Origin: a virus
Taxonomy: Duplodnaviria > Heunggongvirae > Uroviricota > Caudoviricetes
Virus record (IMG/VR): IMGVR_UViG_3300038393_003162
Location: 1-64,000 of that record
Direction: 5' to 3' (one strand)
Length of the DNA: 64,000 nucleotides
Every line of letters begins with the position of its first letter. Within the stretch, counting starts at the first letter, position 1. The notes under the pieces are model-generated. The model saw only the letters and a list, made by a program, of their open reading frames with translations. It did not search any database and was not told the origin of the DNA. This document shows positions 13,541-57,888 of this stretch, in pieces. The position numbers and the translations under genes were made by a program.

Positions 13541-13705
13541 CTGATTGCCCCTGAAGAGTGACGATTGAACGCCTCTAAGGGTACGTCCGGTTATTGCCTC
13601 GTTTAGAAGAAATACATTGAGTAATGTTGATATTGTCGTTAGAGTATACATCAATCATGCCTGAATACTTATGTGCTAGTATTCAGGCATGATTGACAAA
13701 ATAAA

Positions 13706-27277: not shown

Positions 27278-27634
27278 TTATTGTCCGTCCCGAATCAGCC
27301 GGTCGAGGAGGACGTATTCCTGCGGATCGTCACTCATGAAGACAGCCGAGCCACCATCTTTAAAATCGTGTCGCTTGATGGTGATGGCATTGACATTCTT
27401 CATATGCTGAAGAATGTAGGTTTTTCCATCCTCACCAGTGACGATTGCCGCTTTGCCGCCGTAGGTCCCATAACTCGGCTTACGCCAGATGCCATATTTG
27501 TCGGTTGTCTTCCGACTAACCCGATAGCCGTGGGTCTCGTTGTGTTCCACCTCGAAGACGCACTTGCCCCGATTATTGCCGCCGATCGGGTAGTCGTCAA
27601 TCTCCAACTTCTTAACCGGATTGGAATAGTTCAC
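27278..27634 (-). CDS. hypothetical phage protein
   Basis: GTG start with AAGGA RBS; stop inside the motif. Confidence 0.65.
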   Translation of the reverse strand: MNYSNPVKKLEIDDYPIGGNNRGKCVFEVEHNETHGYRVSRKTTDKYGIWRKPSYGTYGGKAAIVTGEDGKTYILQHMKNVNAITIKRHDFKDGGSAVFMSDDPQEYVLLDRLIRDGQ

Positions 27635-27915
27635 TGTCTTACGTTCCTTAAAGGAGTGTGGTTGATCCGTCGGTGAGGGCGTGTCCGGTTTTAGTCGACC
27701 TTGTCCTTGTTCTGGTCGCACCACTTGTCGAGCGAGCCATTCTCTTCACACGGCAAACAGAAATAATACCGTTTGCCGAGCTTGTCCGGTCGCTTGTCCC
27801 CTACCGAAAGATTCGATTCACTTGACTTGATCTTGCGCTTACAGGTAACGCAAGTGTGCGGCATAACCTTTCGCCCTCCTAGTGATTGTCAGTCCACCAC
27901 TAAGGGCGTGTCCGG

Positions 27916-28365
27916 TTATAGCGAGAGGGCGTGCTGCGACCAAAACGCCTCCGACTCAGCCCGTTGTTCCTTCGGCAAACTCGCATCATGCGGCTCGCGT
28001 GGTGCGTACGGACCTCCATATGCAGTAAACAAAATATGTTTGCCTTTGTACTTGCCGCCGATCACCGTCACGGTACGCATAGGACGAGTCGGTCGATCGA
28101 CCATGCGACTCGGGTATCTCCGTCCTTCCCGAATCTTATAAACAACCTCGGATTCGGGGACAGGTGGACCGCCGGTGCTGGGACCGTGAATGCCGCACTC
28201 AGCCGTCATCCCTTTGGGAAGCTCGATCGTTTCGGCTATGAAGTCCTCGATGCGGTTGGCATACCGTTCCGCGATGAACGCCAAGACTTCAGATGAGACG
28301 TGGTCGATGTGTGAATTCTCAAGATCGATGATCAAAACATGGTCCTTATATGAATAAACACCCAT
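27916..28365 (-). CDS. conserved phage hypothetical protein
   Basis: CGIHGP..GG.PVPESEV.Y..R..R...SR; LFTAYGGP.APREP. Confidence 0.7.
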   Translation of the reverse strand: MGVYSYKDHVLIIDLENSHIDHVSSEVLAFIAERYANRIEDFIAETIELPKGMTAECGIHGPSTGGPPVPESEVVYKIREGRRYPSRMVDRPTRPMRTVTVIGGKYKGKHILFTAYGGPYAPREPHDASLPKEQRAESEAFWSQHALSL

Positions 28366-28369
28366 CCTG

Positions 28370-29143
28370 ATCTAAGACCAAGATGGGCGTTCCCCATTCG
28401 CGAAGCCGATGAATCACACCTGACTACTCGTTTCTTGTTACGGTCCTCGTGGGTGTGAAACGCCCTAGGGCGTGAAATTAAATGATCACGGTCCTCGCGT
28501 CATAACCGGCGTCCTCCGGTCTAGGGTCTGGTTCCCCGTCCGTCAATGAGCTATAGCTCTCGGGAGAGGAACATCAACCGTGTTCAAGGTTCTCCGCAGG
28601 GCATCACAAGCCCAAGACTCAGGGACTCGCTCGGATTGGCACGGGTGACCTCCCGTCGTTAAGGTCGCGGTTGTTTCTTGCGTGCGTCTCTGACAGAGAG
28701 TTGCGCGATTGAAAGACCAAACGGGACCAGTGTGAGAGTTAGTCCCGTTTGGTTTTGTCTCAGAAGGGCGGGGATCGAATCATGGGAAGCGTTCCCAAAG
28801 TAAGTGATACCCTAAAGCCCACTCAAGGTCTACCGCTAGAGCTTGCTAGCGGGCTTTAGGGTTCGCCGCAATGTGGGCGGTCGCGCCGGGCAGGAGATCA
28901 AGCATTCAAAGAAAGGACAAGCATGAAATGTTTAATTGTCCACCCCCTTTCTTCGTTAGAGAATTGGAACCTCTCGCCGATCAACATGGCTAGACCCGAG
29001 GACTAAGAGCCGAAACACTTTCACTCTCTTGGTCCCCACACGAATGAGTGAGTGACAGGTCGACAGCATCGTTTTGTCGTTGCGCGTGTTTGGCGATGAC
29101 TTCGCCCGTCAGCATCACTCGTCCGTCTCGTTTCGGACACCCT
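28370..29143 (-). ncRNA. putative large structured ncRNA (~770 nt)
   Basis: no ORF of 60 aa or more in any frame; starts directly after motif 29144; many stems, e.g. ACCAAACGGGAC/GTCCCGTTTGGT (28716-28753) and CCCTAAAGCCC/GGGCTTTAGGG (28810-28861). Confidence 0.55.
28453..28489 (-). CRISPR. solitary degenerate copy of the array-2 CRISPR repeat
   Basis: GTGTGAAACGCC-CTAGGGCGTGAAATTAAATGATCAC versus array-2 GTGTTAAACGCCTCTAGGGCGTGGAATGAGGATCAC. Confidence 0.7.
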
Positions 29144-29401
29144 TAAGGGTGAATCCGGCTTTAACAATGATAGCTCTGGGCGATGCCCTTGTAAACCCCT
29201 AGCGTCTAAAAACCGGATTCACCCTCGCATTAAAAAACGAAAAAATAAAACCCCTGCACCTCCCGAAATGGAAGGACAGAGGTTTTATTGGGTAAAGGCG
29301 AATTTTGCGTCTCGTCCTATAGTCCGTCCCTGTATGCGTGTCCTTGGTAGACACAAATGGTTAACAAACAACACCTCTGAAAGCTAATCACCTTCAGAGA
29401 G

Positions 29402-29545
29402 CTCCCGAGGGGGGAATTGAACCGCCCGACCTCCAGCTTATAAGGCTGGCGCTCTATCGCATCAAAGGCATTGGTCATACTTCGCCAGGGTGAAGACATA
29501 ACCAATGTCGTTGTTCCCTTAATGCTACCACTGAGCTACTCGGGA
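29402..29545 (-). tRNA. tRNA-Ile(UAU) with a 71-nt insertion in the D-loop
   Basis: acceptor TCCCGAG/CTCGGGA, D stem GCTC/GAGC, anticodon arm CCAGC-CTTATAA-GCTGG, T loop TTCAATT; insert ~29455-29525; no encoded CCA; upstream TTTACA-18-TATAGT promoter. Confidence 0.8.
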
Positions 29546-42311: not shown

Positions 42312-42347
42312 GTGCTATAAACCTTGAGAATAATCAAGATTCTGCAC
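42312..42347 (-). CRISPR. solitary degenerate copy of the array-1 repeat
   Basis: GTGCTATAAACCTTGAGAATAATCAAGATTCTGCAC, 227 bp beyond the array end. Confidence 0.8.
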
Positions 42348-42574: not shown

Positions 42575-43189
42575 GTGCTATGCCTATCGAGAATAATCAA
42601 TAGGCTGCACTCTTGAGCAACCGCTTCAAAGGGTTCTTTGGGATGTGCTATGCCTATTGAGAATAATCAGTAGGCTGCACGCAATAACCCTATCAGGATC
42701 GTCGCCAAGAGACTTCGTGCTATGCCTATTGAGAATAATCAATAGGCTGCACCTGTTTCGAAGACGAGTTTGGTGGATGGGTCGCTTGGTGCTATGCCTA
42801 TTGAGAATAATCAGTAGGCTGCACCCCACCAGTAATGTTGGAGGCACCACCATTCAAAGTGTGCTATGCCTATCGAGAATAATCAATAGGCTGCACTAGA
42901 TCAGGCGGTTCCATAGATCAGAGTTGATCTCGTGCTATGCCTATCGAGAATAATCAATAGGCTGCACCACCTTGAGGGCTTGGAGATCCTCAAACAGAGC
43001 CGTGTGCTATGCCTATCGAGAATAATCAATAGGCTGCACAGGCGTCCTTTGATCCTAAGTTAGCATGGGAATATGTGCTATGCCTATCGAGAATAATCAA
43101 TAGGCTGCACCTGCTGCCGGGCTTATTGTGAGTATGTGAGTAGCGGGCTCCAAGTGCTATGCCTATCGAGAATAATCAATAGGCTGCAC
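42575..43189 (-). CRISPR. CRISPR array 1 (type V): 9 repeats of 36 bp, 8 spacers of 34-43 bp
   Basis: minus-strand repeat GTGCAGCCTATTGATTATTCTCGATAGGCATAGCAC; plus-strand starts 42575, 42645, 42717, 42789, 42861, 42932, 43004, 43075, 43154; leader between the array and the cas gene. Confidence 0.97.
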
Positions 43190-57011: not shown

Positions 57012-57888
57012 GTGTTAAACGCCTCTAGAGCGTGGAATGAGGATCACCAGAGGCTTTTCAACTCCGATGGCGGTCCGTGTTAAACGCCTCTAGGGCGTGG
57101 AGTGAGGATCACCCTCTTGCCAACACACGATTCCTCCCGGCTTGGTGTGCTAAACGCCTCTAAGGCGTGGAGTGAGGGTTACTTTCATTTGAAATCGAAC
57201 TCAACAGTGTTAAACGCCTTTAGACCGTGGAATGAAAGTCATGCGTGCATAATTCGCCGGACGTCCTGGTTTTCGTCCTGTGTCGAACGCCTCTAGGGCG
57301 TGGAGTGAGGATCAGGTTAACTTATTGGTTGACGTCCTCAACTGACCGCTTGTGTTAAACGCCTCTGAGACGTGGAGTGAAGATCACCACGGCGCGTCCG
57401 ATGTCGTGTCGCGCGGACCGGATGAGTGTTAAACACCTCTAGGGCGTGGAATGAGGATCACTTCTTCGTCTAGCAATATCCTAATAATTTGGTATGTGTT
57501 AAACACCTCTAGGGCGTGGAATGAGGATCACTCCACTATTTCAAGGGCATCTACTCGAAGATGCATGTGTTAAACGCCTCTAGGGCGTGGAATGAGGATC
57601 ACCGTGATTGAGCGTACACGTCGAAGGTATGTTCTCGGTGTTAAACGCCTCTAGGGCGTGGAATGAGGATCACCATCCAAGGACCACCTCCCTGATCTGC
57701 GCCACCGGGCGTGTTAAACGCCTCTAGGGCGTGGAATGAGGATCACCTCGTGCGTGATGCCATACATCCGCCGCACCTCGTGTGTTAAACGCCTCTAGGG
57801 CGTGGAATGAGGATCACCAGATACGCTCCCACAGCCAAGCTGTATTAGGGTCGTGTTAAACGCCTCTAGGGCGTGGAATGAGGATCAC
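57012..57888 (-). CRISPR. CRISPR array 2 (orphan): 13 repeats of 36 bp, 12 spacers
   Basis: plus-strand repeat GTGTTAAACGCCTCTAGGGCGTGGAATGAGGATCAC at 57012, 57077, 57147, 57207, 57280, 57352, 57426, 57496, 57567, 57638, 57711, 57782, 57853; degenerate copies on the left imply the leader is on the right. Confidence 0.97.

Follow-up and report, generated by a model that had tools for sequence, protein, structure and literature searches.

In a contig of a large, uncultured jumbo phage, present in soil and rhizosphere runs, the stretch between a large structured RNA and a conserved phage gene carries a near-copy of a CRISPR repeat (R1), a 35-nt spacer and a remodelled second repeat (R2), which together, judged from their letters, form what is a degenerate two-repeat mini-array. 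We propose, at a probability of roughly 0.4, that this unit is a degenerate type I-B (I-MYXAN) CRISPR element whose RNA serves as a decoy and a cleavage site for a Cas6, probably that of the host, and that it was likely born when a repeat was joined to a spacer from the adjacent phage DNA. The DNA analysed here, called the window, comprises the first 64 kb of the 253,022-bp contig (C1). The features discussed are collected in Table 1.

Table 1. Features of the repeat unit, its surroundings and related loci (window positions unless C1 or another contig is named)
Feature	Position	Strand	Description
Predicted promoters	29137..29195	-	sigma-70-like site 29195-29167; early-motif copy at 29166
41-codon ORF	28990..29115	-	ends in the 5' strand of the closing stem; PHROGs none
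~490-nt structured RNA	28511..29014	-	closing stem of 14 bp (29003-28990 with 28524-28511), one mismatch
ATG and 13-nt near-copy of spacer start	28488..28503	-	mismatches at positions 1 and 3
R1	28453..28489	-	near-copy of the array-2 (I-B/I-MYXAN-like) repeat
Spacer, 35 nt	28418..28452	-	initial 13 nt similar to the DNA directly upstream of R1
R2	28350..28417	-	repeat start 28417-28409, 17-bp hairpin, handle lost
Downstream gene, ~139 aa	27916..28335	-	conserved phage protein; likely TTG start at 28335 behind AAGGA site
Array 1	42575-43189		adjoins 924-aa Cas12b/Cas12h-like gene
Array 2	57012..57888	-	13 repeats, 12 spacers, no adjoining cas gene
Lone copy L004	C1 107365-107433	-	repeat 107365-107393; 29 identical bases of the array-2 repeat
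Lone copy L006	C1 143572-143693	+	18/19 nt common with R1 where both depart from array 2
L050 (other phage contig)	2979-3096	+	ATG, 19 nt, canonical I-MYXAN repeat, same 19 nt, worn second repeat
L079 (other phage contig)	1443-1570	+	repeat between terminase and portal-like genes, behind sigma-70-like site

R1 is identical to the array-2 consensus at 31 of 38 columns and runs on the minus strand in the array-2 orientation, as the first-pass annotation had reported. Letter-by-letter inspection bore out this near-copy together with the rest of the described anatomy: exactly 35 nt after R1 and then GTGATTC (28417-28411), a 10-nt direct repeat at 28440 and 28488, and an ATG (28503-28501) ahead of an 11/13 match. 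The annotation had also named comparison with shuffled controls as a check, and the R1 fit score of 49 was reached by none of 150 shuffled repeats in the real contig and by none of 40 Markov genomes. The R1 stem (ACGCC/GGCGT; 28473-28469 with 28464-28460) is intact, the loop has 4 nt as compared to 5 in array 2, and the handle (28460-28453) has kept seven of its eight letters, with one change; taken alone, the spared stem is not significant (P 0.094). R1 was covered, in identical letters, by contigs of two of four DNA runs (X6, 28406-28929; X7, 27524-28712), and it is therefore not an assembly slip. The DNA runs, possibly from one campaign, hold no variant at the unit.

The repeat had been described as solitary, which does not hold, because a remodelled second repeat follows the spacer and four further lone copies lie elsewhere in the contig. 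R2 matches the repeat start at 6/7 letters and places 27 nt ahead of its stem, versus 14 in the array repeat (13 nt extra). Its hairpin (fold z -7.6) has a stem 12 bp longer than that of array 2 and a base of ACGCC/GGTGT, followed by TTA, the first handle letters. By post hoc estimates, a repeat start would occur by chance at +33 to +38 in 1.0% of cases, and the stem-base pattern would occur in a 60-nt window with a frequency of 7-9e-5. The idea that the 17-bp hairpin masks a start codon was dropped, since homologues indicate the TTG start of the downstream gene.

The spacer begins like the phage DNA directly upstream of R1, and the adjacent site is the best 13-nt match to the spacer start among AYG sites of the contig. 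This self-match stops at 13 nt, and both of its mismatches fall in the seed (positions 1 and 3), neither being a wobble pair. An 11/13 match no more than 25 nt upstream was found in 174 of 200,000 random windows, and one that also had an AYG PAM in 10 of 200,000, figures that are post hoc. Without the PAM, 11/13 matches are common in this genome, where the eight best 13-mer matches score 11 or 12. No AYG site in the contig offers a perfect seed at positions 1-5 and 7-8, and the spacer pattern was found neither in IMG/VR nor in 50,697 GenBank phage records nor in plasmids. We read the self-match as a fossil of origin, left when a repeat was joined to a spacer from that site, with a seed that is now disabled.

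Array 2 is the source or a sister of R1. Its worn repeats lie at the low-coordinate end, and it is therefore read on the minus strand; its spacers are mostly 35 nt long. By repeat sequence and hairpin geometry, the array-2 repeat belongs to type I-B (I-MYXAN), sharing 27 identical positions with the Synechocystis PCC 6714 I-MYXAN repeat and 24 with a Nostoc repeat, each beside an annotated operon. Like the Synechocystis repeat, it has 36 nt, GTG...CAC ends and a hairpin directly before an 8-nt handle, whereas its 5-nt loop and the letters ahead of its stem differ. Since the Synechocystis I-B Cascade prefers AYG as its PAM, according to the accessible part of that report (PMC11096372), both the repeat type and the PAM that the first-pass annotation had named proved correct.

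The contig, estimated to be ~43% complete, yielded neither a cas6 nor a Cascade gene. Pfam scans of 217 ORFs detected no type I cas gene in the 253 kb, and a Cas1 search (control 7/14) detected no cas1. A tblastn search of the contig with 14 I-MYXAN proteins gave a best E of 0.19; as a control, six of seven Synechocystis queries found the Nostoc locus. Pfam was also used to look for Cas6 in the contig, but as the control was positive in 0/14, this search is uninformative. The 12 + 8 array spacers had no match in the contig, and array 2 had none among phage records. A tracrRNA anti-repeat for the phage Cas12 was rejected, as R1 is in the array-2 sense and not its complement, and the 30 best short matches to the array-1 repeat all fall outside the RNA region. 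A lone, worn array-1 repeat is present at 42312, 263 nt ahead of array 1.

Searches for a host and for relatives of the locus were largely negative. Repeat-core patterns gave no match in IMG/VR or in JGI metagenomes (the second pattern required a 5-nt loop) and a single, chance-like match in GTDB, and a GluRS search for the host reached ~36% identity at most. Soil hosts are thinly sampled, and the absence of the repeat from these collections says little. At 36 loci where the downstream gene has a relative (35 of the 36 records searched), there was no homologue of R1 or of the ~490-nt RNA, only four short matches of 18-25 nt. A homologous locus was likewise absent from GenBank phages and plasmids, and there is therefore no covariation evidence.

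The module from 28395 to 28503 gave a fold z of -3.3 and is predicted to be closed by the near-copy beside the ATG, which would pair with 28410-28398, the insertion in R2. The R1 stem had pair probabilities of 0.85-1.0 in a 191-nt fold and 0.56-0.66 in an 871-nt fold. The predicted partner of the handle is the end of the spacer, and the native letters gave more handle pairing than the array letters, both uncut (0.84 vs 0.55) and after two cuts (0.73 vs 0.19). When the array handle was placed in the unit, the seed was predicted to be paired instead (0.85). Handle pairing of 0.73 was reached by seven of 300 random spacers, and it was equally high in two of 12 array-2 crRNAs, both from the worn end. 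For the upstream piece, pairing is predicted to persist after the cut (-58.7 vs -46.7 kcal/mol).

The structured RNA of ~490 nt (fold z -3.7) ends 21 nt before R1. Its strand was assigned from promoters and neighbours, and it has no Rfam match at E<=5. Each of the four RNA runs examined contributed one contig, and these jointly span 28672-29014; the repeat unit was covered by none of the four, which does not argue against its expression, as such contigs reveal neither short RNAs nor strand nor level. RNA runs made up 11 of the 20 runs among the matches listed, each with 7-13% of the words. A retron was rejected for this RNA, as no RT was found in the contig (control 3/14), and so were tmRNA, RNase P RNA and a group I intron, whose motifs were not found by eye.

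The predicted promoters lie ~680 nt upstream of the R1 unit. They are consensus matches only, with two sigma-70 sites found versus 1.1 expected, and on these motifs the unit would be expressed early. The downstream gene has no early motif of its own and is therefore likely read through the unit. Its product has 24 homologues, a model with a pLDDT of 92.9 and 25 invariant columns in 22 sequences (S-H-x-D-H, Y-G-G-P-x-A-P-R-E); by sequence it has no solved relative, and a weak Atlas link to DUF3228 and an RNase A-like cluster stayed below the naming bar. The neighbours of the unit have no Pfam or PHROGs names, and the nearest ArdA-like gene is at a distance of 2.9 kb.

Scanning with a matrix derived from all 13 array-2 repeats located the four further lone copies at 107365, 120085, 143584 and 99836 of the contig, with 40.0, 26.8, 25.3 and 23.6 bits, respectively, versus a maximum of 19.4 in a null of 60 shuffled matrices. 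By whole-repeat score, only the copy at 107365 cleared the null; the other three were inside its tail (scores of 42, 40 and 37, reached by 2, 3 and 41 of 150), and two of these weak copies carry a stem mismatch. Including R1, all five copies lie outside called ORFs, which is true of 12% of 36-nt windows, and all five are in sense, 11-117 nt ahead of a start codon, one of them before a plus-strand gene. They are nearer to the phage's own array (R1: 31 columns) than to any other repeat seen (20-24). The flanking duplication is absent at all four other copies, and at none of the four was the copy's own hairpin the main fold when its flanks were included, a test in which array repeats were also mispaired. 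The 107365 copy (L004) stands directly behind an early motif and 88 nt ahead of an 80-aa ORF, and from this arrangement it appears to be a better candidate for an RNA anti-CRISPR (Racr) than the R1 unit. At L006, a 13/16 echo of the repeat core occurs 91 nt further on, inside the next ORF.

The early motif is a dispersed 20-nt element, with 65 copies before early genes at window positions 7013-41025 (minus strand) and at 89-107 kb of C1; it is likely a phage promoter, and it gave no match in IMG/VR. Its 3' half (CACGCCCT-AG) is identical to the array-2 repeat core, at the positions where array 2 departs from other I-MYXAN repeats, and the motif copies at 13594 and 25169 continue with AGAGGCGT. 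The only plus-strand copy (29205-29234) is back to back with the copy at 29166 and faces the terminator of a tRNA-like element. This element (29401-29545, minus strand) has an Ile UAU arm and a hairpin of ~70 nt inserted in the D loop, and it was missed by default ARAGORN. A tRNA close to a Ro60 gene (C1 185135) has 20/21 nt in common with this element, and two tRNAs near that position also have insertions of ~65 nt.

To place the flanking duplication in context, we surveyed lone repeats and mini-arrays of the I-MYXAN type in IMG/VR and in plasmids, with duplicates merged by eye. The order PAM, copy, repeat, copy recurred in two of 12 independent loci (L050 and L079), versus 0.01 expected. Loci L063, L068 and L074 were omitted because their flanks were too short, and L069 and L073 because they are long arrays. 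Also omitted were eight of the 12 hits of one lone-repeat search, which were single matches and either not CRISPR-repeat-like or unclear. At L050 the self-match is intact (19/19, ATG PAM, offset -19), and the repeat occupies the 5' leader of a terminase operon in antisense orientation. The duplication restores this leader, and the copied stretch is therefore native phage DNA. At L079 the duplication is 12/13 at the same offset of -19, with TTA and no AYG at the place of the PAM. We found no description of this layout in titles and abstracts, and the published SRU (PMC10651486) and Cracr tables may already list L050, L079 or the present locus.

From the anatomy and its statistics, which are what was observed, we infer transcription through the unit, folding, cutting and inhibition in the following order. 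The PAM, the 13-nt copy, R1, the 35 nt and R2, which stand between the structured RNA and the gene, would belong to a single minus-strand transcript started at the promoters near 29166. The transcript is predicted to form a closed module that exposes the R1 hairpin and conceals the 8-nt handle. By analogy with known Cas6 biology, Cas6 would then cut at 28461/28460 and perhaps at the base of the R2 stem (28359/28358), which would release a ~100-nt piece from between the large RNA and the mRNA. In RacrIF1, according to the accessible text of PMC10651486, it is the product upstream of the Cas6 cut that inhibits, holding Cas6 and Cas7 without Cas5 or Cas8, and the handle is dispensable. Similarly, Cas6, perhaps with Cas7, may be retained here on hairpin-ended products that lack a free handle, so that no productive Cascade would form and the products would compete with host crRNAs.

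In favor of such a decoy, R1 stands above chance with its stem kept, R2 retains a repeat start and stem base and lacks a handle, the single change in the R1 handle raises the predicted handle pairing, and all five copies are outside ORFs and in sense. The suggestion of a Racr-like or Cas6-substrate role in the first-pass annotation agrees with the intact hairpin and the sense, intergenic placement, whereas its accompanying suggestion of a mini-guide to the adjacent site is not supported. Against a decoy, the seven kept handle letters and the 35-nt spacer would be required in a guide but not in a decoy, and array 2 of the phage itself would face competition from the RNA as well. Cas6 may ignore a loop 1 nt shorter in R1 or a stem 12 bp longer in R2, and as the contig is ~43% complete, the phage itself may encode the cognate cas genes.

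The kept handle and spacer length would be explained if the unit were a working crRNA-like guide, similar to Cracr or CreR or to a mini-array against a rival phage, in which Cas6 frees the handle, the 35 nt and R2, and Cascade is directed to the promoter of a host cas or toxin gene or to another virus. We consider this somewhat unlikely. A first repeat that keeps its handle and a second that keeps its 5' part and stem reproduce the divergence pattern of creA in the accessible text of PMC8501985, the spacer has the length of most array-2 spacers, candidates for phage Cracrs include I-B in the portion available of 10.1101/2024.10.29.618823, and the design of repeat, spacer and partial repeat is also seen in other viral I-MYXAN loci. 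However, every fold tried predicted pairing of either the handle or the seed, the stem of R2 is preceded by 27 nt and not by 14, the first letters of the spacer come from adjacent phage DNA and not from a host promoter, and the searches of IMG/VR, GenBank phages, plasmids and the contig's own AYG sites yielded no target. If, instead, the RNA guided Cascade to the ATG-flanked site just upstream, it would throttle its own transcript. The correct PAM, the best 13-nt match among the AYG sites of the contig, the chance estimate of 10/200,000 and the perfect 19-nt version at L050 speak for this idea. CreA-type repression, in the accessible part of PMC8501985, requires positions 1-5 and 7-11, and the seed is mismatched at 1 and 3 by pairs that are not wobbles; present-day self-repression is therefore unlikely. 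Moreover, the match ends at 13 nt and the site overlaps no promoter motif, so that we regard self-repression as barely credible.

The unit could also be an inert scar, in which a past recombination with a CRISPR repeat-spacer unit aimed at this site split the PAM from the full protospacer and left a remnant that drifts without function. Such an event would yield a PAM, a partial copy, a repeat and a full copy, the excess of this layout in the survey (2/12 loci vs 0.01) is in line with it, and 2 nt at the junction of the unit fit both sides. On the other hand, a scar would be expected in either orientation, yet 5/5 copies are in sense (1 in 32); the four other copies lack the flanking duplication; and further, fitted changes would be required for R2 and for a closed fold built with letters from both repeats. 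We therefore judge a scar unlikely. A different possibility is that the five lone copies are processing sites for a Cas6 encoded in the missing part of the phage genome and have no role as anti-CRISPRs. The repeat variant is absent from the host and virus collections scanned, the copies match the phage's own array best and lie between or ahead of genes, and the contig is ~43% complete, but no cas gene was found beside array 2 or in the 253 kb, and we hold this to be very unlikely. An attachment site for integration into a host CRISPR array, a precedent for which is given in the accessible part of 10.1101/2020.10.09.333658, was rejected because no tyrosine integrase was found in the contig (control 14/14) and the flanks are RNA-module-like; as the contig is partial, it is best called not favored.

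A bolder version of the proposed Cas6 decoy, which we put forward as improbable on present evidence, is that the phage seeded five I-B repeat copies in its own transcripts as sites for host Cas6. These would serve both as decoys and in CRISPR-dependent RNA processing, freeing the ~490-nt RNA and the mRNA while Cas6 is trapped on a handle-locked scaffold. The shared layout at this locus and in two unrelated phage contigs would then be the birth record of such RNA anti-CRISPRs, made when a phage protospacer was joined to a host repeat. Viral mimics of repeats are already known; what the present unit adds is a visible trace of origin that recurs in two of 12 other I-MYXAN loci and touches on the question of how such units arise. 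If host Cas6 cuts the unit, the phage would be using an immune nuclease to process its own RNAs. If the unit is a scar, it is a warning that some predicted Racrs are fossils.

Among known systems, as far as the accessible text of PMC10651486 describes them, the unit resembles the Racr/SRU elements RacrIF1 and RacrIC1 in being an intergenic phage mimic of a repeat that has kept its hairpin, adjoins no cas gene and is a predicted Cas6 substrate without a usable handle. In the same text, the tested Racrs are of types I-C, I-E, I-F and V-A, with none of I-B, and the criterion for an SRU is that it has no association with another (partial) repeat. In contrast, the present unit has a second, partial repeat, its handle is predicted to be hidden by pairing, and its promoter is ~680 nt away, behind a large RNA; the usual Racr layout, directly behind a promoter, is found at the 107365 copy and not at the R1 unit. 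With one normal-length spacer and an apparent reliance on host Cas proteins, it is also similar to the viral mini-arrays against rival viruses, in the available parts of PMC11656645 and 10.1101/2023.03.03.530964; however, its repeats are not identical, and its spacer matches no other virus searched and begins like adjacent phage DNA. The crlRNAs CreA, CreR and Cracr, in the portions accessible of PMC8501985, 10.1101/2023.03.10.532045 and 10.1101/2024.10.29.618823, share with it two divergently worn repeats around one spacer, the first keeping its handle and the second its 5' part and stem, though here with insertions, and a PAM-flanked partial match nearby. Unlike theirs, its only match is seed-broken and in no promoter, and R2 is lengthened. 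Because the proposed action is Racr-like but a second repeat is present, and the build is CreA-like but the seed fails, we file the unit between the decoy (Racr) and regulatory-guide (CreA/CreR/Cracr) classes, as a member of neither.
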